Source: a virus. Taken from it: 64,000 nucleotides of DNA. Below the pieces are notes generated by a model, which did no database searches, was not told the DNA's origin, and saw only the letters and a list, made by a program, of their open reading frames with translations. The position numbers and the translations under genes are program-made. The stretch covers positions 3,410 through 67,409 of IMG/VR virus record IMGVR_UViG_3300045988_143165. One strand, given 5' to 3'. Each line of letters begins with the position of its first letter. Position 1 is the first letter of the stretch. This document shows positions 9,441 to 52,105 of the stretch, piece after piece.

Positions 9441-9615
9441 TGCTGTAATAGAAAGACATATAATCAACTCCTTTCATTTTCAACGAAGCGCCAAGTATAT
9501 CCACCTGCGCTTTACGCTCATATTTATTATTACAAACATCGCTTATTCGTTTATAATTTGTTCCTGTTATTAGTTAAACACCTAACAGATTTTCTTCGAT
9601 AAGTTGATTATTCAT

Positions 9616-19853: not shown

Positions 19854-19862
19854 AAAACACTC

Positions 19863-20153
19863 CTAACTATAATCAAATTGACCGTTTTTCCAAAAATCTT
19901 CGGAAAACAATTCATTATGTAATTCTTTAGTTTGTCCTGATTCAAAAGCAATTTTAGCCGCTTCTGTTCTATTAACAAAATGAATTGGTCTTTCATTGGT
20001 TATGAAACCCATTTCATAATTTGTTCTATCATATATAATTCCATCATTTTTCATATTTTGAAAAATTTCTGCGTGATTCCAACCAAAATAAATTCTTTCT
20101 TTATTCGGGTTATCTAATTCAAAAAACTTAATAGCTGCCCTTGCAATTTTCAT
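19863..20153 (-). CDS. hypothetical protein
   Basis: ORF. No motif recognised. Confidence 0.35.
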   Translation of the reverse strand: MKIARAAIKFFELDNPNKERIYFGWNHAEIFQNMKNDGIIYDRTNYEMGFITNERPIHFVNRTEAAKIAFESGQTKELHNELFSEDFWKNGQFDYS

Positions 20154-20158
20154 ATTAG

Positions 20159-20509
20159 TTACTCCAACGCAGTAACCGAATATTTAACTGTTCCATCATC
20201 ATAACTATTCTTTTCAATAGTAGCATTTACAGTTTCACCTACTCGGTCTTTGTATTTATCATAGGTTTCTTTTCCATCAACTCTATATTCAACATCATTG
20301 TAAGAAACTATTACTTGATAAACTGCCGGATGATGTATAAATGTATGTACTTTGCCAGAAACAAGTGGCTGAATCCAAGCACTTCTGTGGTAAGTATCAA
20401 TAACTTCAACTTGTTCTACATTTGTTTCAGTTCCAATACATTTAGCACAACCAACAAAACATAGACCAATCATTATAATAACTAAACCCATTGACATAAT
20501 CTTTTTCAT
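20159..20509 (-). CDS. lipoprotein, hypothetical
   Basis: RBS gagagga plus ATG at MKKIM with lipobox FVGC. The start lies 2 nt after the stop of the preceding gene. Confidence 0.45.
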   Translation of the reverse strand: MKKIMSMGLVIIMIGLCFVGCAKCIGTETNVEQVEVIDTYHRSAWIQPLVSGKVHTFIHHPAVYQVIVSYNDVEYRVDGKETYDKYKDRVGETVNATIEKNSYDDGTVKYSVTALE

Positions 20510-20510
20510 A

Positions 20511-21281
20511 TTAAATAATCCTCTCAATCTTATCATAGTGAAGAATAAATTTATCCATAATGGCTTGTTCATTATGATAATGACCAAAATACCACTTGGT
20601 AAATTTAAGTTCACGAGCTATTTCACCAAGATACATTGTTAAAATATCAGGTTTGTAATATCCGTGAGAAATATATGAAACAATATCTTGAGGCGCACAA
20701 TGAGTAATTACATAATCGACTTCATAATTTACCTTTTCTAATTCCCGTCTGCCTCTCTGCATTTCATAGTACGATGGAAGTTCTTTTTCCCACCAAGATA
20801 TGTGGTCAATTCTCAACATTTGCCCTGCTCTGGTTCTTGTATTATAATCCTTAACCAAATCACTCAATGTTGAATAATCTTCAATTTTTAATATACCGTC
20901 TTGAATATCGTGACTACTTGCTCCGCCAAAAGTAAAGAACTTCTTGCCTTCAAATTCAAATACATAACCTCTCATAAGATGATAGATATTGCTACGTATT
21001 CTATGAGCTTTACCGCCGTGATAATTAACAACCTTAAATTCTTTACTCAATCTATCAAAATTCTCGTGATTTCCATCAACAAATAATATCGTAAATGGTT
21101 TATCTTCAAGCCATTTTAACCAATATGTTTCTGTTTTGTCGGAATAAAGATAATTCCAAATTCCACCAAAATCACCACAAATTATCACAGAATCATCTTT
21201 AGTCATTTCCTTTTGTTCAGGAAAATTCTTTGTAGAAAATCTATTGAAATTTGCGTGAGTATCGCCTGTTATATAAATCAT
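20511..21281 (-). CDS. metallophosphoesterase (calcineurin-like)
   Basis: GDTH, GDFGG and DGNHEN motifs. Confidence 0.7.
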   Translation of the reverse strand: MIYITGDTHANFNRFSTKNFPEQKEMTKDDSVIICGDFGGIWNYLYSDKTETYWLKWLEDKPFTILFVDGNHENFDRLSKEFKVVNYHGGKAHRIRSNIYHLMRGYVFEFEGKKFFTFGGASSHDIQDGILKIEDYSTLSDLVKDYNTRTRAGQMLRIDHISWWEKELPSYYEMQRGRRELEKVNYEVDYVITHCAPQDIVSYISHGYYKPDILTMYLGEIARELKFTKWYFGHYHNEQAIMDKFILHYDKIERII

Positions 21282-21338
21282 TCCTTGCTATTACCTCATA
21301 AATTAAAGGGAGTGATATTTCACACTCCCTATGCTTAA

Positions 21339-21989
21339 TTATTCATTAACAGCAGAATTGCCGCCGAATTCTCTCATTGCACGGAGATATGCTTCTTTTT
21401 GAATTTCAATCTCTCTTTCACGATTCTTGTTGGCTTTCTTAATTCTCTTTGCTCTTGCCTTATCTGCTGCTTTCTTTTCCTTTTCTTTTACAGCCTGTTC
21501 TTCTGCTTTTGCTTTTTCTTCTGCTTTTCGGCTGTTCTCATACACTTTCAAGCAATGGTTAATAAGTTTGTTATATGCCGAACTTCCGTTTCCGTTTGTC
21601 CCCATTGAAAGCATTTTCTTTGTAATGCAAATCGAAATGCCCTGCTCCAAAGAGAAAGTATCGGCACTATCAAGCACAGCTTTTTCTTGCGAGTCATCAG
21701 CAAAACTTACAATGACAACTCTATCTTTGATAACCTGAACATCTTTGATGTGAGGAATAATTACACCAGTTGCAGTACCCGTTCCCCACATACCGTTATA
21801 AATAATACGAATGCCTTTGCTGTAATTCTTATCAATATAAGTCTTTGCGCCATCTTGAACTTTACTAAAGATAAAAATTGGATTATTGACATTTTCTGCT
21901 GATGCAATATTACATTCAATTTCACATTCAATTTCTGCAAATTTCTCATTTGAAACATTGCCTTCTGTTCTCTTTTTATATGCTGCCAT
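21339..21989 (-). CDS. hypothetical protein with a Lys/Glu-rich C-terminus
   Basis: ORF with a charged coiled-coil-like tail. Confidence 0.4.
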   Translation of the reverse strand: MAAYKKRTEGNVSNEKFAEIECEIECNIASAENVNNPIFIFSKVQDGAKTYIDKNYSKGIRIIYNGMWGTGTATGVIIPHIKDVQVIKDRVVIVSFADDSQEKAVLDSADTFSLEQGISICITKKMLSMGTNGNGSSAYNKLINHCLKVYENSRKAEEKAKAEEQAVKEKEKKAADKARAKRIKKANKNREREIEIQKEAYLRAMREFGGNSAVNE

Positions 21990-22035
21990 AATTTAATCTC
22001 CTTTTTAATAATAAAACTGTCATTTTAATAATGAT

Positions 22036-22875
22036 TTATAAGTAATCTCTCATTTTAGTAATTCCGTCTATTAACCATTGATATTTACTTGTAACATCAA
22101 CAACCTTTCCACCATAACAATAATAATGAACTATTGGTAATCTCCGATATTCAGGTGTTAATAGATTTGCATTTCTTCTTAATTTATACCAAATAGCTTT
22201 TAGAATCTTATTTTCAAAGTCAGGCTCAAATCTACTACTTTTACCATCATTTGTTTCTTTTAAGATTTCTTTACCTCTGCTTTTAGCATTAAATCCATAT
22301 AAATAACGTAATTCTTCTCTTTCTCTCACCGAATCATCAATAGATAACCAATACCAATATCCCTCAACTGATAGAAAATCACCGTCATCTGTATGTATAG
22401 GAAACTTATAAAAGTTACTTAACATTTTTCCTAAATCAGTTTTGCCTTTACTATAAATATTGATATGTGTAATTCCGTCATCTGTATCTTTTATAGAATT
22501 CATATCAATATATTCTTTTACACAATATCCATTACGATTTAACCAACCGGAAACAATATGTCTGTGGCAAAAATCTCTTGGAATTTCGTAACACACAAGG
22601 GCAATATCTTTGTTATCATTATTAGAACTAATTTTATTTAGTTCATCAATTACATTTTGTGGAGTAAGACTACTTAATACTTCATCATAAAAATGTTCAA
22701 TATAATAATCGTTATTTTTAGTTTTTTTCCACTCGGAAAAGAAACTCCATTTAGGTGCTAATTTCTTATACTCAATTCCATCCCATTTTTCGGGCGGTTT
22801 TCCAGCTATTGAAACTGGTATAATACTTTCTGGCAAATGGCGAATATTTGCAAAATATGTAGTATAAATATTCAT
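22036..22875 (-). CDS. DUF488-domain protein
   Basis: YTTYFANI...LVCYE...FCHRHIV pattern of DUF488. Confidence 0.4.
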   Translation of the reverse strand: MNIYTTYFANIRHLPESIIPVSIAGKPPEKWDGIEYKKLAPKWSFFSEWKKTKNNDYYIEHFYDEVLSSLTPQNVIDELNKISSNNDNKDIALVCYEIPRDFCHRHIVSGWLNRNGYCVKEYIDMNSIKDTDDGITHINIYSKGKTDLGKMLSNFYKFPIHTDDGDFLSVEGYWYWLSIDDSVREREELRYLYGFNAKSRGKEILKETNDGKSSRFEPDFENKILKAIWYKLRRNANLLTPEYRRLPIVHYYCYGGKVVDVTSKYQWLIDGITKMRDYL

Positions 22876-22909
22876 TGATAAATCTCCAATTATCATTTAC
22901 AATATATTA

Positions 22910-23353
22910 TCAATGATATAATTGATATTTTTTACTTATGTAATGAGCCATATCATCTTTAAGAGGACAAAACCAAATTCCAGTTAGTGTTGTTCCGTTT
23001 TCTTCTGGTGTAAGCTCGGTAAGACAAGCATCATAAATTAAACCATAATGAACATTCTCTATCAGCCCAAGTTCTTGTGCAATCTTGACCGCTTTAAGTA
23101 AATGATTTTTATTCCTTGCTTCACAAATGGTTTTTGTAAATGAACCATTTAGATATTGTTCAAATATTTCTTTATCGATTATTCCTTTAATTTCATATCC
23201 GGCATAATCATCCAAAGGTTTCGCATAATTCCTTAATCCACGAGTCCAATATGCTTCGGCACAATGAGATACTTGGGCTGCAAGTTTGCCGGGAGACATA
23301 TTCAAATCTTTTCGCATTATGAATAATCTTCTCATTAAAATAGCTCCCACCAA
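22910..23353 (-). CDS. PTH2-family peptidyl-tRNA hydrolase-like protein
   Basis: RKDLNMSPGKLAAQVSHCA matches the PTH2 signature (DLxMxxGKxxAQxxHA). Confidence 0.5.
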   Translation of the reverse strand: MVGAILMRRLFIMRKDLNMSPGKLAAQVSHCAEAYWTRGLRNYAKPLDDYAGYEIKGIIDKEIFEQYLNGSFTKTICEARNKNHLLKAVKIAQELGLIENVHYGLIYDACLTELTPEENGTTLTGIWFCPLKDDMAHYISKKYQLYH

Positions 23354-23583
23354 TAATCAAAAATTCTCTTATAATCACAATGTCTCATATCGCCTTTATA
23401 TTTGCGTGCTTTCTTGCTTGATATTTTTTTAAGATACTTTTTATATTTCCTGCCACCACAAGAATATTTTATATATCTTCTTTTTTTCTCGTCATACCAA
23501 GCACCAGCACCATATGAATTCTTGGTTTCATTATAAAGTTTTTTAAGTCTGTGATTTCTTTCCTGACTTCTGCGATAACTCAT
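23335..23583 (-). CDS. small basic protein
   Basis: ORF rich in K/R/Y. Confidence 0.3.
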   Translation of the reverse strand: MSYRRSQERNHRLKKLYNETKNSYGAGAWYDEKKRRYIKYSCGGRKYKKYLKKISSKKARKYKGDMRHCDYKRIFDYWWELF

Positions 23584-24394
23584 ATTGCCCTCCCAAGTAT
23601 ATTAAATCATTGACATACTTTCGACCATCTTCCTTAAAAATAGGAGTTTCATTATCAATAATCCATTTACTTCTCCCTGTTGTTTCATCAATCTTACGAA
23701 TACAACAACTACCTCTCTTGTATTTCGTAGGACAATTATTCCAGTTGACACCTTTTTCGAGCATAAGCATATCCTGAATATCGCTTATAGATTTTTTATC
23801 TAACTGCTTATGAGAAAAATATGCTCTACCAACCATCTGAATAGAATTTCTGGTTGCATCATTCTGTCTCCAAAGCAAATTATTGCAAACCTCATCTTTT
23901 GGAATATTAAATACACGGGCATCAAACATTGCCCCTTTATCTATTGCTCTATTAAGTACCTCAATATATTCTGATTCGGGTGGAATATCTATATCTTGAA
24001 GTTCTAAAACCGAATTTATATAATCATTGGCTCTTTTATTGAAAAATTTATTAAAAGCCATTGTTGCCATACTGGCTGCAACGCTCGCACATTTTTGGAT
24101 ATTATAATCAAACCAAGCAGAAGTATCTATATTTCTGTAATCAACAAGAACAAGAGTAATCTCATCGGATTGTGTATATCCAAGAACGCAACCCTGAATA
24201 TTCTCACAAAGATACTTCATTGTCTCCTGCATAGTTTTAGAAAGCACATCATCAAAAGGTTTTTGAAAACCTCTTGTGAATGTATGAAATGCTTTACCGT
24301 CAATTCGTATAATAACTGGGGTTCGAGTTGTCAAATAGTGTCTCGACACAAATTCATACTTTTTCATTCTTTTATCAAATGCACTGTATTTCAT
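23543..24394 (-). CDS. Thg1-like protein (tRNA-His guanylyltransferase family, 3'-5' nucleotidyltransferase)
   Basis: N-terminal KYEFVSRHYL...VIIRIDGKAFHTFT matches the Thg1 family (FEYVR...RLDGRNFH). Confidence 0.65.
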   Translation of the reverse strand: MKYSAFDKRMKKYEFVSRHYLTTRTPVIIRIDGKAFHTFTRGFQKPFDDVLSKTMQETMKYLCENIQGCVLGYTQSDEITLVLVDYRNIDTSAWFDYNIQKCASVAASMATMAFNKFFNKRANDYINSVLELQDIDIPPESEYIEVLNRAIDKGAMFDARVFNIPKDEVCNNLLWRQNDATRNSIQMVGRAYFSHKQLDKKSISDIQDMLMLEKGVNWNNCPTKYKRGSCCIRKIDETTGRSKWIIDNETPIFKEDGRKYVNDLIYLGGQYELSQKSGKKSQT

Positions 24395-24828: not shown

Positions 24829-24904
24829 TGGTTGCAGGAGTGGGATTTGAACCCACGATTTTCAGCTTATGAGGCTGACGAGATAACCACTTCTCTATCC
24901 TGCA
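24829..24904 (-). tRNA. tRNA-Met (anticodon CAT)
   Basis: Full cloverleaf. Anticodon loop CTCATAA, T-loop TTCAAAT, CCA encoded. Confidence 0.8.
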
Positions 24905-24960
24905 ATATTGGCTGTTTTTGAAAGTGTCAGCCACACTTAACAACGAAATAGGATTATCTA

Positions 24961-25054
24961 TGGCTCATATAGGATTTGAACCTATGTCTCCGGCAGTGTG
25001 CCTGATTTACACTACATACCTCCGCCAGTGTCTTAACCACTTGACCAATGAACC
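24961..25054 (-). tRNA. atypical 94-nt tRNA-like gene (anticodon arm irregular or with an insertion)
   Basis: Good acceptor (GGTTCAT/ATGAGCC), D-arm (GTC-AAGTGGTTAA-GAC) and T-arm (ATAGG-TTCAAAT-CCTAT). Between D-arm and T-arm there are 39 nt with a 5-bp stem (CTGGC/GCCGG) enclosing 29 nt that include a 6-bp hairpin with a 9-nt loop. Confidence 0.4.
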
Positions 25055-25056
25055 TT

Positions 25057-25139
25057 TGGTGCTGGTGGCGAGATTTGAACTCGCACGCTTATAGCAACAG
25101 ATTTTGAGTCTGCCGTGTCTGCCATTCCACCACACCAGC
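25057..25139 (-). tRNA. tRNA-Leu (anticodon CAA), type II
   Basis: Anticodon loop CTCAAAA, long variable arm, T-arm GCGAG-TTCAAAT-CTCGC, CCA encoded. Confidence 0.75.
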
Positions 25140-25637: not shown

Positions 25638-26211
25638 TTTGTTCTCTCCTTTCTAAAGTGATTTCAATACCAGTTAGCAACAGTTCAACTACTCTATGCC
25701 GAAACACTGTGAGTTGGTTTGCATAGCCACACCACATCCTCGCCTCATATTACCATTACTAACTGATATTTAGTCACCGTCATTCATTGTTCATACATTC
25801 ACTCTTGCAGTTCGTTATAAATGCACAATCATTTACTGTAATTCCTTTGAATGACTACTCATTATTCCTGCACTCTCGTATTTATAATTCCCTCACTATT
25901 GTGTTACCCCGAGTTATCGTATCGGTAGAGGGCGTAACGCCATATAAATGTCTAACAGAGAGTTTCTTTCTTCTCATTTATATAGTTGCTGTCAGAAACC
26001 ATCAGCCATAGGAGCAGTTTCCACGGAGTTCGCTAATGAGGATTTTGCGATTTGCATATGAAAGTATATTTACCCCACCTATATTCGCAGCGACAGCAAT
26101 ATTTTAATAACCAACTTTTTCATAATAGTGAGCATTGTTAAGAGGCTTTTATGCTTTTGGTATTGGTCGTGAGAGTCGGTTCTCAACCAACCTGTTGCGC
26201 CAACAGGATGT

Positions 26212-26304
26212 TGGCGGCGAGTGTAGGATTTGAACCCACGGGCGGCTCATCACCGCCGCCTGTTTTCAAGACAGGTGCAATAAGCCGGACTCTGCCAACT
26301 CGCC
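26212..26304 (-). tRNA. tRNA-Ser (anticodon TGA), type II
   Basis: Anticodon stem CCTGT/ACAGG, loop CTTGAAA, long variable arm, CCA encoded. Confidence 0.75.
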
Positions 26305-26353
26305 ATATTGCCGGTCTTTCCCGGCTGTCAATAGAGGTGAAACTTAATGAAAA

Positions 26354-26440
26354 GTGGTACTGGTAGTCGGACTCGAACCGACACGGCTTGCAGCCAACGG
26401 ATTTTAAGTCCGCTATGTCTGCCAATTCCATCATACCAGC
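26354..26440 (-). tRNA. tRNA-Leu (anticodon TAA), type II
   Basis: Anticodon loop CTTAAAA, long variable arm, T-arm GTCGG-TTCGAGT-CCGAC, CCA encoded. Confidence 0.75.
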
Positions 26441-26458
26441 ATATTAAATTTTCACTCT

Positions 26459-26536
26459 TGGCACGCCGAGCAGGACTCGAACCTGCGACCTCTTGATTCG
26501 TAGTCAAGCATTCTGTTCCAACTGAACTATCGGCGC
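26459..26536 (-). tRNA. tRNA-Arg (anticodon ACG)
   Basis: Anticodon stem CTTGA/TCAAG, loop CTACGAA, CCA encoded. Confidence 0.8.
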
Positions 26537-26774
26537 ATATGTATATGGCAAAGACCTTTATCTATCTAACTTTGCCCCTGTTAAACAGGTTTTAATCAGA
26601 CAAAAAAATACTCTTAATTTATCTTATGAAATACACAAAAACATAGAAAGGAAAGAGAGAGGTGAAAAATTCTGATTAGGTTTTGTAGTTATCGTATTTT
26701 GTTTTGCTCAATAATGTTTCTTAATGCTGGAAATTTCGGTCTCTTTGATTTTAGGGCTGCTGCCTTACCTCTTG

Positions 26775-26830
26775 GCGACTACCAACAATGTAGATAGGTG
26801 GGAATCGAACCCACGATTAGCAGCTTGATA
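26775..26830 (-). ncRNA. tRNA 3'-half-like cargo (T-arm plus 3' acceptor-like strand) inside structured-RNA unit (a)
   Basis: GTGGG-TTCGATT-CCCAC T-arm followed by CTATCTA. No matching 5' half was found downstream. Confidence 0.35.
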
Positions 26831-26969
26831 TTATGTATTTGAAGAAGGATGAAACCTTTCAGCCAGCTTATATTCAGAAATTTGAGGTTCTTATAATATA
26901 TAGATTAAAAGTCTATTCCTAATAGGTAGAAGGATGAATCTCAACAGCCGAATATTTATTTAACTTACA

Positions 26970-27035
26970 TTAGATATTATAGCACACATTTTACTATTTG
27001 TCAAGTGTTTTTCTCAATATTATTTCTAATTATTT
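26970..27035 (-). promoter_or_regulatory. consensus sigma-A-type promoter with conserved upstream element (P1)
   Basis: Minus sense: TTAGAAATAATATTGAGAAAAACAC, TTGACA, 17 nt, TATAAT. Confidence 0.55.
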
Positions 27036-27200
27036 GAAATTTATTCGATGCGGTAATTTTAACATCTAATAATACTATTGCACTACCAACTGTGCTACAT
27101 CCCATCTTCGATGGAATGGTGGGAGTCGAACCCACGACACATAGTTCCTTGATATATAGAAGGATGATGTTGGTCAGCCGCATATTTTGTATTGTGGAAA
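27030..27200 (-). ncRNA. Y-RNA-like structured RNA carrying a permuted tRNA-like module (unit c)
   Basis: Order on the minus strand: helix 1, internal loop, helix 2, AUCCUUCUA loop, ACTAT, variable GTGTC, T-arm GTGGG-TTCGACT-CCCAC, CATTCCA, loop TCGAAGA, TGGGATG, TA, D-arm GCAC-AGTTGGTA-GTGC, A, ATAGT, 7 nt, helix 2', loop, helix 1'. Acceptor-like strands pair 7/7 (one G-U) and anticodon-like strands 5/5, but the acceptor is capped by a loop. Confidence 0.55.
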
Positions 27201-27476
27201 TTTGTTTCTCTAAAATCTTAATCCCAAATCAAGTGCCTATTGGCGTAGAAGGATGAAAAACAATAGCCACATAATATTTAGAAAGAAGTGTGGGAATTTA
27301 ATGCTCTTTTTAGAAGAATTTGCAGTTCTTGATATTATGTAGAAGGATGAGCATTACAGCCACAAATTATGAATAGTGGAAATCGAACTTTCTATCTTAT
27401 CATCATTATGTAGGTGGCTTAACCACCGAAATTATTTTCTTGTAGAAGGAAGAAAGCCCATAGCCACAAAATACTT

Positions 27477-29726
27477 TTATAATAACTGACCCATAAAGTA
27501 ATCAGTATCGAAAGCCGTGATAATCGGAACTTCCGGCTTTTCCTTTACAACAGGTTTTGTAGTACCCGTAACCTCGTCAAGCTCATTTACAATTTCATAA
27601 GGTACTGTTGTATCATTGCTGAAAATGATGTCTGCTTCATTTCTATCTGTGACAATACTACCTCTTGCAATAGCATTCATCATTATGAGGTCATAAATAT
27701 TTGCCTTATTAAGATGTGTTAAGCCATAGCAAGTTGCGGTTACACCGTGTAAATTACTTTCAAGATTATTTCCATAAAACCTCGAACTTGCATTCTGAAG
27801 GTTCATATCACACCAAATGAATTTACGCTCAACGCAATCGAATATAACGGGTATAGCAACAGTGCTGTCAGCAGTTAAGTCAATCTTCATTTCAACTGTT
27901 TGCGGCTCGAATATCTCGCCGCTATTTATATCTTCTCTTTCCATCCATCCAAAACGGCAATTAGGAAGCGTAGAAAAATGCTGTCCTGTAAAACTATAAA
28001 CCTGAAATGCAATGTATCTACCAGTGTTTTTAGCAACTGCATCAATCTCTACATCAATAAACTCTGCTACACCATCACCATTAACATTTCCGCCATTGGT
28101 AATATCACCCGAATGATATGCTCTGTACTTTGCAGAGCGAAGTTGTGTGTATGATACACGGTCAACATACTGCCAATTTTCATCATAGATGGTTGCAGAA
28201 AGGTCAATATCAACCCTGCTTTCATCCCAGCTATTTCTCGTCTTATCGGTATTAGTCCACCAAATAAAACCACGAACAGCCGTAGCATCTTCCTTAATGG
28301 GCAATTTACTACCACGAACAATGGTCTTAACAGCCTTACTTGCACTTCTCTGACTAAACGGAACAAGGTAGTTTTTGAAATCCTCATCAATATAAACCTT
28401 TCCGAGAAAATCTTTTTCCTTGTACTGTTCAATTAAAGCCTCACGGCAAATCCTTGCAACATTTTTACATACATTGCTATTGATTTTAGGAAGTTCATTT
28501 CTGATAACCATAGCTTTTGCAAGGTTTCCTTTAGGAAAGAATACTCTTACAGGCTGATTATCATTCTCCATTCTTCCTATGAAATGCTGTCTTACCTGAA
28601 GGAGTACAGGAGTTGAGATTTCTGTTGCAACTTCCTTAAAACAGTTGACAATATAATTCGGATTATCTGCATCACGAACAAGTTTGTCAAGTTGCCTTGC
28701 GAACTCTCCGGGTCTTACTTTTAACAAGGTGGCAGCTTCACGCATATCTTTTGCGGTAATTGCTGCCTGAACCTTTCCTGCAAACATAAGAGGCTTTTTC
28801 TCGTTTCTTAAAGTATTGAATGCAGCGTTGACATTGCTATACTTTGCTTTTTTATATTCAAACGGATGAAGAATTTCTGCAACTCTAATCCATTCATACT
28901 GATAACGGAATAAATCCTCTGTTATGTTACCACAACCAGTAAGCAAGTCCATAATCATACGGCGTTCAACCCTACGAAGATTTCTGTACTTGGTTTTTGA
29001 AGCAAGGCTAATGTCGCCATCGGAAAGTGCTGTTACAAGTCGTAAAACATCCGTTGCGGTCTTGAAGTATTTGCCTATTGAATCGGCGCTTTTGATTGGC
29101 GCTTTTTCAATAATGAGTTTTCCAACGAATGCAACATTCTCTTTAAGAGGGATTGTATCAGGAAGATATGTAGTATAATCAGGACAAGCAAGAATGATAG
29201 TTTCAATGTCCTCTTTGTCCTGCTCCGAGATTGATGTCTTGCTCTCAACAAGATTTGTGAAAATAGTCATCAAATCATCGTGACTTCCTACTGATAAAAC
29301 AGCCATTTTATTGTCATCAATAAGCGGTAAACGCTCATTTTTTTCGTATTCGGGAATCAATGTGCCAAATGACCAGTAATGAACGATTGCATTGATAAAT
29401 AACTCAATGTCACTTGCTTCTGCAACCTGCTGTGGGAAGTTCGGGTACATTGGATTATATGTAACATCCGCACCAACAAGTTCTTTAAGTGCAGGAATAA
29501 GGAAACCATAGAAAGCAGTAAACTCATCTCTTGTAAAATGAAATGCTTTTTCAATAAGTTCCTTTGAAAATGTAAATCCAAGAGCCTGAACATTTTTCAA
29601 GCCGGAAACAACGAGTGCTTTTTCTGTCTTGCTCTGCTCATAAGTCATATTAGCAGGTTCAAACATCACTGAATGCTTACGGCGTAACAAAATCTTATCA
29701 AGTTCTGTTAATTTGAAATTCTTCAT
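27477..29726 (-). CDS. large hypothetical protein (749 aa). Alpha-helical N-terminal ~480 aa plus a C-terminal beta-rich region with a possible vWA-like DxSxT segment. Candidate RNA-binding partner of the flanking structured RNAs
   Basis: Long intact ORF with RBS aaaggagattattacaATG, flanked on both sides by the structured-RNA units. No secure motif recognised. A Ro60/TROVE-like assignment is only a hypothesis. Confidence 0.45.
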   Translation of the reverse strand: MKNFKLTELDKILLRRKHSVMFEPANMTYEQSKTEKALVVSGLKNVQALGFTFSKELIEKAFHFTRDEFTAFYGFLIPALKELVGADVTYNPMYPNFPQQVAEASDIELFINAIVHYWSFGTLIPEYEKNERLPLIDDNKMAVLSVGSHDDLMTIFTNLVESKTSISEQDKEDIETIILACPDYTTYLPDTIPLKENVAFVGKLIIEKAPIKSADSIGKYFKTATDVLRLVTALSDGDISLASKTKYRNLRRVERRMIMDLLTGCGNITEDLFRYQYEWIRVAEILHPFEYKKAKYSNVNAAFNTLRNEKKPLMFAGKVQAAITAKDMREAATLLKVRPGEFARQLDKLVRDADNPNYIVNCFKEVATEISTPVLLQVRQHFIGRMENDNQPVRVFFPKGNLAKAMVIRNELPKINSNVCKNVARICREALIEQYKEKDFLGKVYIDEDFKNYLVPFSQRSASKAVKTIVRGSKLPIKEDATAVRGFIWWTNTDKTRNSWDESRVDIDLSATIYDENWQYVDRVSYTQLRSAKYRAYHSGDITNGGNVNGDGVAEFIDVEIDAVAKNTGRYIAFQVYSFTGQHFSTLPNCRFGWMEREDINSGEIFEPQTVEMKIDLTADSTVAIPVIFDCVERKFIWCDMNLQNASSRFYGNNLESNLHGVTATCYGLTHLNKANIYDLIMMNAIARGSIVTDRNEADIIFSNDTTVPYEIVNELDEVTGTTKPVVKEKPEVPIITAFDTDYFMGQLL

Positions 29727-29821
29727 TGTAATAATCTCCTTTGTTTTAATTTGTCGGTAATCATTGAAACTATTTAGAACCCAATTTCTTTAATAGAAGG
29801 AAGTTTCAATATAGCCGTTAA

Positions 29822-29966
29822 GGGAAATTTGATGGAAATTTTATACTCTATTCTTGTAGGCGCTCTATCCGATTGAGCTAACTACCCACGGGGTAGTGCC
29901 GGGCTTGAACCGACAACCTCCTGCTTAACAGGCAAAAGATTTAGAAGGATGAGTATTTTCAGCCAT
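29822..29966 (-). ncRNA. Y-RNA-like structured RNA carrying a permuted tRNA-like module (unit g), immediately 3' of tRNA-Lys
   Basis: Same architecture as unit c. T-arm GTCGG-TTCAAGC-CCGGC, ACTACCC, loop CGT, GGGTAGT (7/7 complementary), TA, D-arm GCTC-AATCGGATA-GAGC, anticodon-like stem CCTAC/GCAGG (4/5). Clamp helices ttgatgg/ccatcaa and atactc/gagtat covary with unit c. The D-arm and variable region resemble the adjacent tRNA-Lys. Confidence 0.55.
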
Positions 29967-29968
29967 CA

Positions 29969-30044
29969 ATGGTGTGCCAGAGAGGAATCGAACCTCCGAC
30001 CTACCGATTAAAAGTCGATTGCTCTACCGATTGAGCTACTGGCA
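29969..30044 (-). tRNA. tRNA-Lys (anticodon TTT)
   Basis: Anticodon stem ATCGA/TCGGT, loop CTTTTAA, T-arm GGAGG-TTCGATT-CCTCT, CCA encoded. Confidence 0.8.
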
Positions 30045-30052
30045 CATATATA

Positions 30053-30128
30053 TTGGGTGGAAGTAAAGGAATTGAACCTTTTCTTGCAGTGTCACAAACT
30101 GCCGTGCTTACCGTTACACTAACAACCA
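30053..30128 (-). tRNA. tRNA-His (anticodon GTG) with encoded G-1
   Basis: Anticodon stem GCAGT/ACTGC, loop TTGTGAC, extra 5' G opposite discriminator C, two U-U pairs in the acceptor stem, CCA encoded. Confidence 0.7.
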
Positions 30129-30134
30129 CATATA

Positions 30135-30210
30135 TTGGAGCATATGGCTGGAATTGAACCAGCAATGACGGAGTTGCAGTCCGCTGCCTTAACCATTTGG
30201 CTACATATGC
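30135..30210 (-). tRNA. tRNA-Cys (anticodon GCA)
   Basis: Acceptor GCATATG/CATATGC, anticodon loop CTGCAAC, CCA encoded. Confidence 0.8.
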
Positions 30211-30597
30211 GTGTTTTGGCGGCTCTACGTCTTTCGTGTTGCAACACTTAAATTCTACCGCTAATTAGTGTCCTTTAGATAATCGTCATTATCGCACCCA
30301 CTAATAAAGGCTATTCCTTTCTTCATAGACTTACGAGAATTAGGTTTTTCAGACTTCTGGCAATTTCCATCTCTGGTTATTATACGAACACCTTTAACCC
30401 TTTGCCTCTATGCCGATTGTGTACTGAACATCGGGAAACATTTTGGAGATTTTATTTTGAGTCGTTGCTCCAACCCTCGACTTGCGAGTATATGCACCTT
30501 GTACTTCGGCATTGAGACTCGTAACTATGAATAAGAAAACCTTTCTCGTCCAATACAAAGGCTGTACCTTTTAATCGCATATTTATCTCTCACTTAC
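30211..30597 (-). other. 387-nt non-coding spacer between tRNA-Cys and tRNA-Trp (possible structured RNA)
   Basis: No ORF of 60 aa or more on either strand. It sits inside a co-oriented tRNA operon. No tRNA, RNase P RNA or tmRNA signature was recognised. Confidence 0.3.
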
Positions 30598-30673
30598 CTG
30601 GCAGGAGAGGAAGGATTTGAACCCTCATCTACATCGGTTTTGGAAACCGGAGTTCTCCATTAAACTACCCACC
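30598..30673 (-). tRNA. tRNA-Trp (anticodon CCA)
   Basis: Anticodon stem CCGGT/ACCGG, loop TTCCAAA, T-arm GAGGG-TTCAAAT-CCTTC, CCA encoded, one U-U pair in the acceptor. Confidence 0.75.
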
Positions 30674-30787
30674 TATATATTACCTTGCTTGTGGTATAAA
30701 CTCTGCAAGGCATAGAGTTTGTATCGTACCACTCAACCCCTTATTTATTCGCTTTATTTTAGGTATCTAATAATTGCGATTAGATTA

Positions 30788-30878
30788 CTGGCGGCGAGGG
30801 TGAGACTCGAACTCACACACCGTTTTCCGGCTACTAACAGTTTAGCAAACTGCTTCCTTACCATTAGGATTACCTCGC
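30788..30878 (-). tRNA. tRNA-Ser (anticodon GCT), type II
   Basis: Acceptor GGCGAGG/CCTCGCC, anticodon loop TTGCTAA, long variable arm, CCA encoded. Confidence 0.75.
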
Positions 30879-30881
30879 CAT

Positions 30882-30957
30882 ATGGCTGGGGTGGTTGGAC
30901 TCGAACCAACGAAATGCAGGAGTCAAAGTCCTGTGCCTTACCGCTTGGCGACACCCC
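30882..30957 (-). tRNA. tRNA-Gln (anticodon TTG)
   Basis: Acceptor TGGGGTG/CACCCCA, anticodon stem CAGGA/TCCTG, loop CTTTGAC, CCA encoded. Confidence 0.8.
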
Positions 30958-30962
30958 AATAT

Positions 30963-31037
30963 ATGGAGCGAATAGAGAGAATTGAACTCTCACTTCAAGT
31001 TTGGAAAACTTGCGTGCTAACCTTTACACTATATTCG
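30963..31037 (-). tRNA. tRNA-Gly (anticodon TCC)
   Basis: Acceptor GCGAATA/TATTCGC, anticodon stem CAAGT/ACTTG, loop TTTCCAA, CCA encoded. Confidence 0.8.
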
Positions 31038-31186
31038 CAAGTGGTTATTTATAAGGCTGTTTATCAAATTCCATTTACTACTGCTTCTGCCTTATATACG
31101 ATACCCGAAACGAACCCCAACATCAAATTGGGCTTATATATATCGCACATACTTCGTAGCACCTTAATAACCGATGAAATTATGTA

Positions 31187-32791
31187 TTACTCTGTTCCAG
31201 CTTCAACAGATGTTTCGGGTAAAACCTTTACGCCGTCAGAATTTACATTTTCATCTTTAACACCATTAACAGTTGTGTTAGTGGTTGTTGCAAGTAAACC
31301 CTTTACGGGTTCGGAAATGCTTGAAACCAAGCCACGAATTTCATCATTAAATGACTGTCCGTTGAGTGCCTGATTCTCTGTATTCAACTTCTTCATAAGG
31401 GCAGGAACACTTGCCAGAGTGTCGATAAGAACATTTCCTGTTCCGCTGGAAGTATTGCCACCACCGATATTTACGAACTCTGCGTTCTGACCGATGTTAG
31501 CCATAATCTCGGCTGTCTTTGTAGCAATAGTAATCTTTGCTTCGTTCTCAATCTTCAACTTCTCAATCTCAAAGTTGACCTTTTCATTGGATGCACGGGC
31601 TTCTGCTAATGCTCTTTCGCCTTCTGCCTGTGCCATTAACTTCTGTTTCTCAACTTCCGCCTCGGCAAGACCTCTCTGGCGAATAACCTCTGCTTCTGCA
31701 ATACCTTTCTGTTTAGTAACATCTGCAACAGCAGTACCCTCTTTACGAGTTTTCTCTGCGGTAGCTTCTGCTGTAATCTTGGTAGCACTTGCTTCTTTCT
31801 CTGCAACCTCAACGGTAGCATCTGCACTTACCTTACGGACATTTGCATCGGCTTCGGCTTCAATTTGTCTCTTTTGCTTTTCAGCCTCGGCTCTTGTAGC
31901 AATTACTTCTTTTTCCTTCATTGCCGCAAGATTAGCCTGTTCTTGCTCAACAACCTTGATACAACCTTGCTGTTGAGCAATTTCCTGCTGCCTAATCGTT
32001 CTCTGCAATTCACCTGCGATTGCGGCATCGGCATCTGCCTTATCTGTTTCTGCTTTAAATTCTGCAATCTTCAAGTTGTTATCTCTTTGTTTAGCAGCAA
32101 CAGCAAGTTTGGAGTCAAGTTCATTCTGGGAAGCAACCTTTTCGGATTCTGCTTTTTGTGTACGAACTGCCTGGTCAACTACCGCCTTTTTGTTCTCTGC
32201 TTCACGGCGCTTATCTTCCATATCAAGAGCAGCAATATTGTCATAGTAGCCGTTATTGTCTGTAATGTCCTGAATGTTGAGTGATACAAGTTCCATACCC
32301 ATATTTACCATTTCATCAGAAACAATTTTTTTAACATTATCGGCAAAAGCAACTTTGTCACGAAGAACTTCTTCCGGTGTCATTGATGCCACAATATCAC
32401 GAACCGCACCTGTTAATGTCAATTTTACATCGTTTATAATTCCGTCTTGACCTCGTTCTTTGAATGAGATAATTGCTTTCTTCAAATTATCCATATTATC
32501 GGTGTCAGGTCTAATCTGTGCAGTCCAATCAATTACAATAGGCACAGATGTTTTGGTCTTTACTTCGTCTCTGTCTGCTGTAACAGTCAACATACAAAGG
32601 TCAAAATATTGAGCCTTTCGGAAAATCGGGATTACAAAAGAACCACCAGATACCTTAATTTTAGGTTCTTTGCCACCTGTTACGATGAGTGCTTTGTCAA
32701 TACCTGCAACTTTATAAATTAAGCAACAGAATATGACAACTACAATAATTGCTGAGATTGCAATTCCGACAGGAATGAGAAATGATGTCAT
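31187..32791 (-). CDS. flotillin-like SPFH/Band-7 domain protein
   Basis: N-terminal TM, then an SPFH core (GGSFVIPIFRKAQYFDL...), a long Ala/Glu/Lys-rich coiled coil and a C-terminal tail, typical of YqiK/FloA-type flotillins. Confidence 0.7.
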   Translation of the reverse strand: MTSFLIPVGIAISAIIVVVIFCCLIYKVAGIDKALIVTGGKEPKIKVSGGSFVIPIFRKAQYFDLCMLTVTADRDEVKTKTSVPIVIDWTAQIRPDTDNMDNLKKAIISFKERGQDGIINDVKLTLTGAVRDIVASMTPEEVLRDKVAFADNVKKIVSDEMVNMGMELVSLNIQDITDNNGYYDNIAALDMEDKRREAENKKAVVDQAVRTQKAESEKVASQNELDSKLAVAAKQRDNNLKIAEFKAETDKADADAAIAGELQRTIRQQEIAQQQGCIKVVEQEQANLAAMKEKEVIATRAEAEKQKRQIEAEADANVRKVSADATVEVAEKEASATKITAEATAEKTRKEGTAVADVTKQKGIAEAEVIRQRGLAEAEVEKQKLMAQAEGERALAEARASNEKVNFEIEKLKIENEAKITIATKTAEIMANIGQNAEFVNIGGGNTSSGTGNVLIDTLASVPALMKKLNTENQALNGQSFNDEIRGLVSSISEPVKGLLATTTNTTVNGVKDENVNSDGVKVLPETSVEAGTE

Positions 32792-32992
32792 ATTTAACTC
32801 CCTCTTATTTCTTTATATTTCTCTTTATATCTAAAAATCGAGCCATAGGTCTCGCACCTATGGGAGCAATGGCTGGATTAGTCTGCGCACAACGTACCAA
32901 CAATTATCTCTCTTAATTACTTTCTATTTTTACATTGCTTTTTCAAACGCCGATACTTTTAAGGAACTTTCTTTTTGGTCGAACATTCTGGA

Positions 32993-33070
32993 GTCGAACC
33001 AGAGCCGCGACTTCACCGCCGCTATGCTACCGTTACACCATTAGTTCTAATTCCTGCCACCCATTCAGTG
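32993..33070 (-). other. tRNA-like fragment ending in CCA (possible attP core or pseudo-tRNA)
   Basis: T-arm TCTGG-TTCGACT-CCAGA, then ATGTTCG-A-CCA. The upstream part has a GAA-containing hairpin but no canonical 5' acceptor or D-arm. A promoter lies upstream and the flotillin gene follows. Confidence 0.3.
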
Positions 33071-33234
33071 ATTGTACGGTCTTTCTGAATGGTTCGTACA
33101 TTGTGGCATATCCTCGTAAGGCTTTGCTGTTCACTACTCGATTGTTATTTATTTAATTTTGCGTTGCTCAATATTATTTCTTAATGCATTTAGAATTGCC
33201 GACCTTTTAGGTCAGCACTCTTGATTACTTCTAT

Positions 33235-33290
33235 ACTATATCATATATTTAGGTGTTTGTCAAGAGGTTTTGCAAAATTATTTTTTTAAG
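33235..33290 (-). promoter_or_regulatory. consensus promoter with conserved upstream element (P9)
   Basis: Minus sense: TTGACA, 17 nt, TATAGT, preceded by TAAAAAAATAATTTTGCAAAACC. A downstream hairpin GCTGACC/GGTCGGC lies at 33199-33217. Confidence 0.5.
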
Positions 33291-34030
33291 ATTGAAATGC
33301 TACAATTTGATACGGTATATTTCGTTTTTTAGCACTATCAATCATTTGTTTTGTTCCTTTACTCTTTCCATTCCAAAATGCAAACACATATGAATCGCAA
33401 GTAGATACATCTATATAGTCGAGCATTTGAATGTTTCTAATATAACCTGCCCTTTTACCGAATTGTTCCCAATTTGCCGGAAACCTCTTTAATAATATGC
33501 ACTTTTCTCTGGCATATCTTTCTCCGAGTTGGTCTGTACCACGAGCAGCACCGCTTATAATAGTTATCTTATTATTAGGGTGTTCTTTGACAAATTTATT
33601 AAGGTACTTTTCCAATAGTTCGTAGTTATTAAAGTCTCTACTACCAGCAATAATAACCCTTATTTCAGGTCTTTCTTCATTAAATAATTTTTCCACAAAT
33701 AAATCCATTTCATAAATCAACTTGAAACAGTTACCGTGAGATGCGTGATTCTGCCAAGAACAGTAAATCTCATTGAACTTTTCTCGCTTCATTCTTCCTT
33801 GTGCTACTAACTTTGCGTACTTTCTTAAACGCTTTTTAACTTGCCTTTTGTTATCTCCATTAGGAACAATTTCAGTCTTGTTATTAAGCGTTAATTTTAA
33901 GTTAGCTAAATACTCTTTGGTTTTAATAAGACATTCTTTTAGATACTCTTTATCATTAGATAGTAAATAAAAGTCATCCATATATCTACCATAATATTTG
34001 CATCCAAGCTCATCGACAATATAATGGTCA
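33286..34030 (-). pseudogene. reverse-transcriptase remnant (motif C YMDD plus thumb) fused to a SLOG/DUF2493-like domain. N-terminal RT motifs are missing
   Basis: The frame is open from the stop at about 34031: VFVLIFLNGLDHYIVDELGCKYYGRYMDDFYLL..KLTLNNKTEIVP (retron/Abi-type RT motifs B', C and thumb), then RVIIAGSRDF...ISGAARGTD...NWEQFGKRAGYIRN...GKSKGTKQ (SLOG-like). Only about 190 nt separate it from the upstream DUF6273 gene, too short for RT motifs 1-A-B. Confidence 0.5.
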
Positions 34031-34992: not shown

Positions 34993-35760
34993 CTAATTTG
35001 AATGATATTCAAAGCACGGCATTAACTGTAACTTGAACATATTTTTTTCGTGCATTTCGTTAATTTTTGCCTTTACTTTTTCGTCATCACATATTCCAGT
35101 TCTTATATACTTATCAAGAACTGCATAGGTGAAGCCAAAACTATCTTCATCTGTCTTTCCACAAAGTCCATCTGTCGGAGTTTTGTGTGCAAGCTCATTA
35201 GGTAAGCCACAATCCTCTGCTATGGCAATTACTTCTGTTTTTGTAAGCATTGCAAGAGGACTAAAATCTCCTGCTGCATCACCGTATCGTGTAGAATAAC
35301 CGATATAATCTTCCGAAAGATTGCAGGTATTCATTACTCTGCCATTCATTGATTGAGATACAGCATATAATGTAGCCATTCTCAAACGAGCAGGAAGATT
35401 GATTTTAGTCTGTTCTGAAATATCAATAGGATAATAACCGTCAAAATTTGGGTCATAGTAATCATCAATATTACAGATTATTCCATTGTATGCTTGTTCA
35501 ATATTAACCTCTGTATATTTGATACCAAGATGTGAAACCAACTTAATAGCAGAATCAATATCTTTCTGCACGCCATTTGGCATAAGCACACCAAATACCC
35601 TGTCTTTCCCAAGTGCTTCAACGCACAAAGCAGCAACCGTGCTTGAGTCTATGCCACCTGAAATTCCGATAATAGCATTACAGTCTTTTCCATTTTTTTT
35701 AAATATATCTCTTATCCATTCAACAACATCATTTTTGACTTTTATTACATCAAATGTCAT
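34993..35760 (-). CDS. nadE: NH3-dependent NAD+ synthetase
   Basis: PP-loop GISGGIDSS. About 255 aa, typical NadE size. Distal part of the NAD+ salvage gene set. Confidence 0.8.
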   Translation of the reverse strand: MTFDVIKVKNDVVEWIRDIFKKNGKDCNAIIGISGGIDSSTVAALCVEALGKDRVFGVLMPNGVQKDIDSAIKLVSHLGIKYTEVNIEQAYNGIICNIDDYYDPNFDGYYPIDISEQTKINLPARLRMATLYAVSQSMNGRVMNTCNLSEDYIGYSTRYGDAAGDFSPLAMLTKTEVIAIAEDCGLPNELAHKTPTDGLCGKTDEDSFGFTYAVLDKYIRTGICDDEKVKAKINEMHEKNMFKLQLMPCFEYHSN

Positions 35761-37220
35761 TAGAACTTACCTCCGTGCAATGTATTTCTTACTTCCGAAA
35801 GAGAGTATTCTTTTATCATCTTACCATCACTGAATATAGGCTGGAGCATATTATTCTCGTTATACGCCTCTGCCCAGGTATGACCATCTGTAAATGTGAG
35901 GTCTGAATTTACAATACAACAACCTTTTTGTGATTTCTTAAATCCACCGTCTTTTGGATTCTTAAAAATCGGCACAGATTTTCCGTTAATCTCACAATAT
36001 GTTGCTTTAATGCAAGAACTAAAGGTATCACGGGTAAAAGGCTTTAGAATACCATCTTCCTCAATGCACTGGAATGAGAAAGAACCAACTCCAAGCGCAA
36101 CGTTTGAGCAAGCAAAACCATTCTGCATAAGGATTTCATAGATTTGCTCACATCTCTGTACCGTAATACTATCACCATAAATAGCCTTAACGTGTGGGTC
36201 AAGTACTTTATATCCCTTGCTGTTTACTGTTCCGCCAAAAATATCCCACAGTTTGAATACTGTCCTTGTAACAACCTCAACACAATCACCGGAATCTCCA
36301 CGCATAAGCATACAACCATTGTGTGACATAATTTCAGGTTTTAATTCAGGAAGAACATTATCAATTATGTTCCAGTAATCATATGAATCAAGCACAGCGG
36401 AAAACGAATTATTGGGATAAATTTCCGCTAAAAGTCTGCGAAGAAGCGTAATTTCATCACCATCGACTGCATAATTACTACACATAACTGAATGCTCTGT
36501 GCTGGGTGAACCAAATGCCACAGGTTCTTTTGTGCAATCGCAATTATACATTGCCTCAAGATAGGGAACTGTCGGAACGGTTGCAGTATTCAAAAATGAC
36601 ATACACCAACCTGCACCAGCTTTAATTGCTGATTCTGTGCATTCCTCGCCTCTGAAATCAAATGCTCCGAGTGCTTTTGACTTTGGAACATCATCATCAC
36701 AAGTCAGGTCGTAATATTTATTTACAATCTGACGATATGTATATCCGACTGTTGCAGCCAACATAGGATGCCAGCTTTCAGCAGAAATAAGGCTTTCAAG
36801 AGCTTGTGGAAGCCAAGCGAAATCAGAATGTGTATTTGTAATTCCAAACATCGGAACGTGCATCGGTACAAGTGTTCCTTCAGGAAGTGCCACAATCTTA
36901 ATCGGAAGATAGCCGAGTTTGTGAAGTTCTTCAATCTTCTTAATACCGTAAACATTCTCTCCAAGAGAAGCATCCATAATTCTCTTATAATTTGCGATAA
37001 CCTCGTCAAAAGGTTTATTGAAAAATTCTTCGTTGAAATAATCAATAAGGTATGTTTTTATAAAACCCTGCAACCCAAACATAACAACCTTATCCCATCT
37101 CTTAACTCTCGTCATTCTCGGAGTAAAATAAGATACTGATTTTGTGATTCCTTTGGGCAACATTTCTGCGTGTACTGCCTTATAAAAATCAATAAGCAAC
37201 ATAGGATTTATCTTTCTCAT
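35760..37220 (-). CDS. nadV: nicotinamide phosphoribosyltransferase (NAMPT/NadV family)
   Basis: Aligns with human NAMPT along its length (IDFYKAVH/TDSYKVTH, LPIKIVALPEG, VLDSYDYWN/VSDSYDIYN, LMRGDSGD/IIRPDSGN, NSKGYKVL). RBS taaGGAGaattgaaATG at MRKINP. Confidence 0.85.
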   Translation of the reverse strand: MRKINPMLLIDFYKAVHAEMLPKGITKSVSYFTPRMTRVKRWDKVVMFGLQGFIKTYLIDYFNEEFFNKPFDEVIANYKRIMDASLGENVYGIKKIEELHKLGYLPIKIVALPEGTLVPMHVPMFGITNTHSDFAWLPQALESLISAESWHPMLAATVGYTYRQIVNKYYDLTCDDDVPKSKALGAFDFRGEECTESAIKAGAGWCMSFLNTATVPTVPYLEAMYNCDCTKEPVAFGSPSTEHSVMCSNYAVDGDEITLLRRLLAEIYPNNSFSAVLDSYDYWNIIDNVLPELKPEIMSHNGCMLMRGDSGDCVEVVTRTVFKLWDIFGGTVNSKGYKVLDPHVKAIYGDSITVQRCEQIYEILMQNGFACSNVALGVGSFSFQCIEEDGILKPFTRDTFSSCIKATYCEINGKSVPIFKNPKDGGFKKSQKGCCIVNSDLTFTDGHTWAEAYNENNMLQPIFSDGKMIKEYSLSEVRNTLHGGKF

Positions 37221-37231
37221 TTCAATTCTCC

Positions 37232-39261: not shown

Positions 39262-39263
39262 AA

Positions 39264-51979: not shown

Positions 51980-52019
51980 AATAAATACCTCTTTCTGTAT
52001 GTGTTTCTTGTTTTTGTGT

Positions 52020-52105
52020 TGTAGTAATTCATTTACTATAATCATTATAGCAAACGCTTTTATATTTGTCAAGCATTTTTCTCAAAATTATTTCTAATTC
52101 TGTGA
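52020..52105 (-). promoter_or_regulatory. consensus promoter plus palindromic operator (P5)
   Basis: Minus sense: TTAGAAATAATTTTGAGAAAAATGC, TTGACA, 17 nt, TATAAT, then TAGTAAATGAATTACTA. Confidence 0.55.

Follow-up and report, generated by a model that had tools for sequence, protein, structure and literature searches.

A TerD-containing protein of a large phage-like genome and its flanking handle RNAs as a candidate Ro60/Y RNA-like system

Why does a single large gene stand between two groups of small structured RNAs, and do the protein and the RNAs belong together? The question is raised by a 64,000-nucleotide stretch of viral DNA (IMG/VR record IMGVR_UViG_3300045988_143165, positions 3,410 to 67,409; hereafter the window, with positions counted from its first letter), which is part of a large phage-like genome with a G+C content of about 33% that holds nearly all of its genes on the minus strand. 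The gene is an open reading frame (ORF) of 749 amino acids (aa) at 27477-29726 (-), intact from ATG to stop. Eight RNA units, U1 to U8, flank it on both sides and on its own strand; U8 ends 25 nt before the start codon and U1 begins 7 nt after the stop codon. All eight have in common a conserved UCAUCCUUCUA loop and a covarying two-stem structure, termed the handle. We consider it reasonably probable that the 749-aa protein and its eight neighbouring RNAs together make up one ribonucleoprotein (RNP) system, Ro60/Y RNA-like in design and with a protein family and a handle of its own.

The linkage of gene and RNA was followed in 80 viral loci, whose proteins are 37-96% identical to the 749-aa protein, and in 80 bacterial or metagenome-assembled genome (MAG) loci with 42-67% identity, the bacterial DNA amounting to 880 kb. 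In at least 155 of these 160 loci the handle adjoins the gene, invariably on the gene's own strand. On that strand its 5' pattern occurs 488 times between 1 kb upstream and 1.5 kb downstream of the gene, as opposed to 33 times everywhere else on both strands. A search of the 80 bacterial loci with R1, a covariance model of the handle, returned 152 matches, every one of them beside the gene and on its strand, and eight of the 11 loci that had been missed or barely matched by the pattern are positive with R1, so that only L075, L114 and L145 are negative. Represented among the bacterial loci are chromosomes of Paenibacillus, Bacillus, Niallia, Priestia and Brevibacillus, Lachnospiraceae, and two MAGs, one of Microscillaceae and one of Entomomonas. 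In most of those checked, tRNA genes are absent from the surroundings, and the three examined for their neighbours have no shared protein genes, hence the pair of gene and RNA appears self-contained. The linkage extends to Xanthomonas phage XacN1, whose homologue is only 25% identical and annotated as hypothetical, and which carries three units directly upstream (E 4e-9 to 4e-5); Rhodococcus phage Weasels2 shows weak R1 matches only, located downstream.

The reverse test gives the same picture. A scan of the viral collection by the RNA pattern alone led to 55 loci whose unit was verified structurally. The retrieved DNA of 39 of them contains the protein gene, in all 39 on the strand of the unit and in none on the opposite one, and many of the remaining loci end close to the unit. 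Linkage that is this strict, strand-specific and independent of position, and that is maintained across deep protein divergence and in unrelated contexts, is most simply explained by a direct functional partnership. The partnership in turn is most simply a protein-RNA complex in which the protein would recognise the constant handle. The initial annotation, made from the letters of the window, had put the protein forward as a candidate RNP partner of Y-RNA-like elements; comparative genomics strongly supports the partnership, and the RNAs are not canonical Y RNAs. A separate observation concerns L194, L219, L227, L229 and L282, which have verified units and more than 2 kb of flank on each side and lack the protein in the retrieved DNA. 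In some large phages the units may thus be scattered further from the gene, or be present without it.

The units follow a repeated minus-strand pattern in the flanks that consists of GGCU(G/A), 7-9 nt, UCAUCCUUCUA, a variable insert and AAUUUCC. By the 5' pattern together with a matching 3' end 417 units were gathered in the 160 loci, 344 of them unique, and the consensus of the handle was derived from an alignment of 73 diverse short units of 60-80 nt. The basal stem comprises 5-7 bp and always ends in two G-C pairs (GG/CC). It is followed by an asymmetric internal loop with CU(A/G)(U) on the 5' side (consensus CUAU) and R(A/C)UUU on the 3' side, and by a second stem of 8-10 bp. The apical loop of the short units starts with UCCUUCUA and often ends with UUAG, the single strand reading (U/C)(A/U)UCCUUCUA. 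The second helix, which was not used in the selection, is 91.6% paired in the 73 units with four to six pair types at seven positions, and its covariation score of 0.858 compares with 0.18 for shuffled partners and 0.13-0.19 for slid partners. RNAalifold independently predicts both helices. The G-U pairs and compensatory changes show that the handle functions as RNA.

The handle does not correspond to an Rfam 15 family. An E-value scan of both flanks with Rfam detected only sub-threshold YrlA and tmRNA fragments, and at the gathering score ten related loci gave only tRNA and tmRNA and no YrlA. Judged from these sequence comparisons the RNA family is previously undescribed and lies outside Rfam 15; a literature search found no description of the protein-RNA pair, an earlier computational mention being possible. 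The start of the loop, (C/U)UUCCUUCUA, reads CUUC-CUUC-UA (for example at 27246-27256 and 29942-29952 of the window) and presumably resembles the pyrimidine-rich 3' tail of 16S rRNA (...CCUCCUUUCUA in Bacillus). A second register is possible, in which the UCUAA of the loop pairs with the conserved UUAGA that precedes the 3' strand of stem 2.

The units of the window and a predicted promoter among them are given here in their order along the minus strand.

29829-29969 (-): U7, the 'unit g' of the initial annotation; handle with a permuted tRNA-like domain consisting of T arm, closed acceptor hairpin and D arm (R1 40.7 bits; fold)
29751-29821 (-): U8, minimal handle hairpin (R1 50.9 bits, E 2.3e-10; fold)
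27373-27470 (-): U1, handle with the hairpin GGUGG-UUAAG-CCACC (R1 51.6 bits)
27287-27366 (-): U2, handle with an anticodon-stem-loop look-alike, loop CUGCAAA (Cys GCA), at 27314-27330 (R1 41.4 bits)
27191-27273 (-): U3, handle with an anticodon-stem-loop look-alike, loop UUUGGGA (Pro UGG), at 27217-27233 (R1 52.3 bits)
27048-27183 (-): U4, handle with a permuted tRNA-like domain at 27076-27143 (handle read from sequence and fold)
26976-27004 (-): predicted sigma-70-type promoter just upstream of U5; TTGACA, 17 nt, TG-TATAAT (12/12)
26871-26954 (-): U5, handle with an anticodon-stem-loop look-alike of 5-bp stem and loop CUUUUAA (Lys UUU) at 26900-26916 (R1 40.6 bits)
26725-26869 (-): U6, handle with a permuted tRNA-like domain at 26758-26822 (R1 partial, 19.2 bits; fold)

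Over the entire 64 kb R1 has seven matches (E 1e-10 to 0.02), far beyond what chance would give; each is a minus-strand match in one of the two ORF flanks, and elsewhere no E value is better than 0.28. At default filters it misses U4 and truncates U6 because their inserts are long, and the extent of these two units rests on sequence reading and folds. The promoter (27004-26976) matches at 12 of 12 positions and has an extended -10 element, and a TTGACA...TATAAT pair is found at the same place upstream of U5 in L001, L002, L003 and L006, which points to transcription of at least some units apart from the ORF.

The part of the unit that is inserted beyond the handle, its cargo, differs between bacteria and phages. 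In bacteria the apical loop is short and a locus has one to three minimal RNAs of about 65 nt, whereas phages have up to 8 or more units, on both sides of the gene, in which the loop is often replaced. In the window the replacements are pieces of tRNA, namely the permuted domain in U4, U6 and U7 and the look-alikes of the Lys, Cys and Pro anticodon arms in U5, U2 and U3. At relaxed thresholds Rfam YrlA matches U7 at 29833-29942 over the full model (positions 1-114; 34.6 bits) and both U4 (35.9 bits) and U6 (21.9 bits) over model positions 23-85. All three scores lie below the gathering score of 69, and the alignments span the core of T arm, acceptor-like stem closed by a small loop, and D arm. 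Because the acceptor stem is closed, these domains are not two adjacent tRNA genes. Among the 344 unique units 46 contain the T-arm motif, 32 of them together with the D-arm motif, and a further type of cargo, a perfect 5-bp stem with a 7-nt loop YU-NNN-R-N as in an anticodon arm, is seen in 37 of the 344. Its loops are CUUUUAA as in tRNA-Lys (UUU) in 14 cases, UUUGGGA (Pro) in four, CUGAAAA (Phe-type) in three and CUGCAAA (Cys) in three, and the Lys look-alike is also present in one XacN1 unit. As a side observation, a tmRNA gene lies within the array of tRNAs and RNA units in the phage-like loci L009 (4876-5189), L029 (3463-3862) and L083 (2463-2862). L083 comes from the assembly of a cultured Ruminococcus sp. 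YE282 and its near-identity with the viral contig L029 suggests that it is a resident phage.

The protein was initially regarded as an orphan, and this view cannot be maintained. A word-indexed search of 90% clusters identified 3,433 relatives among 8,000 candidates scored, and an exhaustive HMMER search 2,870 clusters at 50% identity, which are mostly full-length proteins of about 700 aa. PHROG 33734, of unknown function, matches the 749-aa protein end to end, and close relatives are named 'TerD family protein' by NCBI. The description as the largest uncharacterised ORF of the window does hold, since no window ORF without a Pfam domain exceeds 749 aa; the only larger ORF, at 55287-58349 (-), encodes a 1020-aa fusion of an N6 DNA methylase with a SNF2/DEAD helicase and has Pfam domains. 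NCBIfam NF041916 (MXAN_6230/SCO0854 family RING domain-containing) covers aa 313-696, that is the end of the helical domain and the TerD domain, in a partial match that is strong (410 bits, E 2e-122) and falls short of the family cut-off of 600. It describes RING-domain relatives in Myxococcus and Streptomyces, whereas the window protein has no RING domain, and a literature search on the NF041916 family found no papers. Longer relatives such as P0212, P0225 and P0251 (989, 861 and 1072 aa) have extra N-terminal regions. Conserved motifs rich in Arg and Lys (KTATDVLRL, RPGEFARRLD and RVFFPKG) occur in the family, and the N-terminal domain of 437 aa is conserved in all of it.

The AlphaFold2 model, for which 59 diverse relatives were used, is confident (pLDDT 91.7, pTM 0.89). 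It divides into a helical part (aa 1-437), a part rich in beta structure (aa 440-650) and a short alpha/beta tail at aa 655-749, and so bears out the helical N-terminus and beta-rich C-terminal region that had been read from the sequence at the outset. The features of the gene are as follows.

27477-29726 (-): whole ORF, three-domain protein (ORF call, PHROG 33734, NCBI name, AlphaFold2)
28416-29726 (-): N-terminal alpha-solenoid (aa 1-437), tentatively TROVE/Ro60-like, by fold only
27777-28409 (-): TerD beta-sandwich (aa 440-650) with invariant D506, D508, S539-G540-D541, E555 and D558
27480-27764 (-): C-terminal alpha/beta domain (aa 655-749), from the AlphaFold2 model and with no domain or structure match

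By fold, the N-terminal helical domain tentatively comes closest to Ro60; a Foldseek search with the full-length model returned no match. The second domain has the TerD beta-sandwich fold. Pfam gives no match at all for the query, and its TerD entry (PF02342) matches 15 of the 59 relatives, at best with 2.8e-07, while the family profile retrieves the TerD structure 3ibz from the PDB at E 0.0045. The invariant residues align with the TerD segments DLD and TGD...DDE, which we take to be those that form the calcium sites in the structure of Klebsiella TerD, and the TerD domain of the 749-aa protein probably binds calcium. A possible vWA-like DxSxT segment had been noted in this region. The string is indeed present, as D508-L-S-A-T512, and is aligned with the DLDLSA strand that opens TerD domains; because it belongs to this first strand of the TerD fold, a vWA domain with a MIDAS motif was rejected.

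From the NCBI name one might take the protein for a standard TerD-type stress or calcium-binding protein, with the RNA units unconnected to it and part of the phage tRNA array, where they could serve as processing signals, for instance. The embedding of the window units between tRNA genes would fit such an arrangement, but it is contradicted by the bacterial loci, where the RNA accompanies the protein in chromosomes without a nearby tRNA gene. Members of the TerD family such as Klebsiella TerD and Streptomyces SCO6318, from the tellurite-resistance ter operons, are single-domain proteins of about 190 aa encoded in ter operons. In the present protein the TerD domain makes up one third, an RNA partner is present, and the N-terminal domain found family-wide is foreign to TerD proteins. 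No genes of a ter operon (terZABCDEF context) were found among the neighbours in the window and in three bacterial loci. We therefore regard this explanation as highly improbable.

A type III toxin-antitoxin-like pair, or a defence/anti-defence pair, in which the protein is an effector held inactive by the adjacent RNAs, is brought to mind by the same data. As in ToxIN and CptIN, arrayed structured RNA repeats lie next to a protein gene on the same strand. Some bacterial loci are situated near genes of GmrSD, LRR and SUFU type, and the module is self-contained and moves between genomes. The repeats here are not identical tandem copies and share only the handle, a single unit is common in bacteria and can be located downstream of the gene, and the protein has no endoribonuclease fold, nuclease or other toxic domain that could be found. 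PADLOC had no defence-system match, and the reading as a defence system is thus rejected. With no nuclease fold and non-identical units, a toxin-antitoxin-like pair is decidedly unlikely.

Ro60 (Rsr) with its Y RNAs, among them YrlA, YrlB and Yrn1, is, to our knowledge, the only well-studied ring-shaped RNA-surveillance protein that has dedicated modular small RNAs, and the function of the two in bacteria is only partly understood. The genes of Y RNAs are no more than 4 kb away from rsr and share its strand. The RNAs combine a protein-binding stem containing an internal loop with a second module that is often a tRNA-like domain, and the Rsr/Ro60 recognition motif GNCGAAN0-1G is located near their 5' end (PMC4201824). 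In phage phiLo, a solved example, two Y RNA-like genes, for Yrl1 and Yrl2, are found upstream of the Ro60 gene (PMC12135203). The system described here resembles this design in several ways. In both systems the protein gene is accompanied, on its own strand, by one to several small RNA genes. Their RNAs are of modular build: the two ends pair into a stem, to which are added an internal loop and a module that varies and can be a permuted tRNA-like domain with T arm, closed acceptor stem and D arm. In each protein a domain of helical repeats precedes one that binds cations, both being predictions in the case of the 749-aa protein, and both systems are found in bacteria and in large phages. They differ in that the 749-aa protein has no detectable TROVE sequence relation, carries TerD in place of vWA and has an extra C-terminal domain. 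The handle sequence, GGCU... UCCUUCUA ... UUUCC, lacks GNCGAAN0-1G/CGAA, and the arrays reach 8 or more units, some with anticodon-arm-like cargo. Canonical rsr was not seen near the family members in the Bacillales and Clostridia loci.

Several of the results weigh against the RNP reading, or against its likeness to Ro60 and Y RNAs. TROVE (PF05731) is not found by Pfam in the query or in any of the 59 relatives, and hhalign gives a probability of 0.2% when the family is aligned with 31 TROVE sequences (Rsr, human Ro60 and 29 relatives), so that the TROVE relationship first suspected finds no profile support at the sequence level; nor does any other ORF in the window encode TROVE at E<=10. The Rsr-binding motif occurs in the first 30 nt of none of the 344 units, and YrlA (RF02553) stays at about half its gathering score in the window, or less, and does not reach it in ten related loci. 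The initial description of Y-RNA-like elements on both sides of the gene is essentially right, the units being structured and on the gene's strand, and they are not canonical Y RNAs. Some of the short AT-rich anticodon-arm look-alikes could be chance. Lastly the units are found just upstream of the ORF in 98 of 152 bacterial occurrences, and in Paenibacillus alvei a GGAG that is likely the ribosome-binding site falls within the basal stem. With no TROVE match, no vWA, no Rsr motif and only sub-threshold YrlA, the system is described as Ro/Y RNA-like in its working, with another protein family and another handle.

The last two of these points belong to the main alternative, according to which the units are not partners in trans but cis-acting regulatory elements, i.e. 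leaders bound by a ligand or by the protein in autoregulation. In P. alvei DSM 29 (L139, 4836-4995) two minimal units directly precede the ORF and the GGAG, 7 nt before the ATG, is in the 3' strand of the basal stem of the second unit, so that the stem could hide the ribosome-binding site. Together with the leader position in many bacterial loci this makes a cis role possible. In the window, too, one unit lies about 25-90 nt before the start codon; the AAGGAG site of the ORF falls outside it. A leader, however, does not account for the many loci, among them those of Lachnospiraceae and Niallia, in which units are found solely downstream of the stop codon, nor for the phages with up to 8 or more units on both sides. 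The internal promoter is predicted to drive U5 and U6 independently of the ORF, and for cargo such as a full tRNA-like domain no function in a leader is apparent. If the protein regulated its own gene it would moreover still have to bind the handle, so that this alternative overlaps in part with the RNP explanation. On balance a purely cis-acting function seems unlikely.

Under the preferred explanation of a protein-RNA complex, it is proposed that the 749-aa protein binds the constant handle, through a putative RNA-binding surface and possibly with a role for calcium, and that the apical cargo sets what the particle would recruit or imitate. In large phages the RNA would have been multiplied into arrays inside tRNA gene clusters, with the cargo turned into pieces of tRNA, either an elbow domain of the YrlA type or hairpins that resemble anticodon arms, namely those of tRNA-Lys(UUU), Cys, Pro and Phe. 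Judged by this cargo, the particle is likely to act in the surveillance or repair of tRNA or other RNA, or in protection against defences that cleave tRNAs during infection. A role of the phage arrays in displaying parts of tRNA, as decoys or to recruit other factors, is a speculation prompted by the cargo and by the gene neighbourhood. A broader picture, possible and on present grounds doubtful, is that of a widespread and hitherto unrecognised RNP class which joins a Ro-like ring to a calcium-sensing TerD domain and uses interchangeable guide or decoy RNAs on a universal handle. In this picture the phage arrays of tRNA elbows and anticodon arms, above all that of tRNA-Lys(UUU), might sense the anticodon nucleases of the host or draw them off, or might bring tRNA repair enzymes to tRNAs that are damaged, and the UCCUUCUA loop may thread the ring.

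The locus thereby points to a second system of the Ro60/Y RNA design, with a protein family parallel to that of Ro60 and a structured RNA family that is new. The strict linkage of RNA and gene makes the system easy to locate; with thousands of protein clusters it is also very common, occurring in tractable Bacillus and Paenibacillus and in the cultured phages XacN1 and Weasels2. It would offer a direct route to testing how such particles work and what the tRNA-like pieces in phage tRNA arrays do, including the idea of decoys against tRNA-cleaving defences. A function would also be given to many proteins that are now labelled "TerD family" or "hypothetical".

The neighbourhood of the gene is rich in tRNAs and in genes for their care. 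Thirteen tRNA genes (ARAGORN and Rfam) surround the ORF on the same strand, in blocks at 24829-25139, 26212-26536 and 29970-31038, and the tRNA-care genes by which the window is enriched encode Thg1-like, PTH2, DUF488, metallophosphatase, DHH and Band-7/SPFH proteins. Listed as upstream, at 18972-24394 (-), are the DHH/DHHA1, metallophosphatase, DUF488, PTH2 and Thg1-like tRNA/RNA-care genes. Listed as downstream, at 31187-33981 (-), are those for a 534-aa Band-7/SPFH (flotillin-like) protein and a YAcAr/SLOG protein; Burroughs and Aravind are said to have linked SPFH modules to tRNA-like RNA in the abstract of a 2016 paper. Two non-coding segments inside the tRNA blocks, at 25640-26205 and 30211-30598 (-; 566 and 388 nt), have no Rfam match, and the stability of their folds is not unusual (z -0.4 and -1.3). 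The tRNA-Pro with anticodon AGG that ARAGORN places at 24961-25054 (-) is unusually long at 94 nt and has an anticodon that is unusual for a bacterial system; Rfam scores it as tRNA with 51.5 bits.

Further away, an NAD gene cluster at 34993-39791 (-) encodes an NAD synthase, a NAMPT-like phosphoribosyltransferase, an AAA/STAND-like ATPase, a PRPP-synthetase-like protein and an isochorismatase/nicotinamidase. We take this cluster to resemble the phage NAD+ reconstitution pathways that counter NAD-depleting defences. Near the methylase-helicase fusion are a protein with an LPD29 domain (50144-52072) and one with a GmrSD_N domain (52447-52968). A SAM riboswitch (RF00162) at 54125-54212 (-), which at 58.7 bits exceeds the gathering score, is located upstream of a 106-aa ORF without a Pfam match (53725-54045), and the same window encodes a SAM synthetase at 8403-9467.

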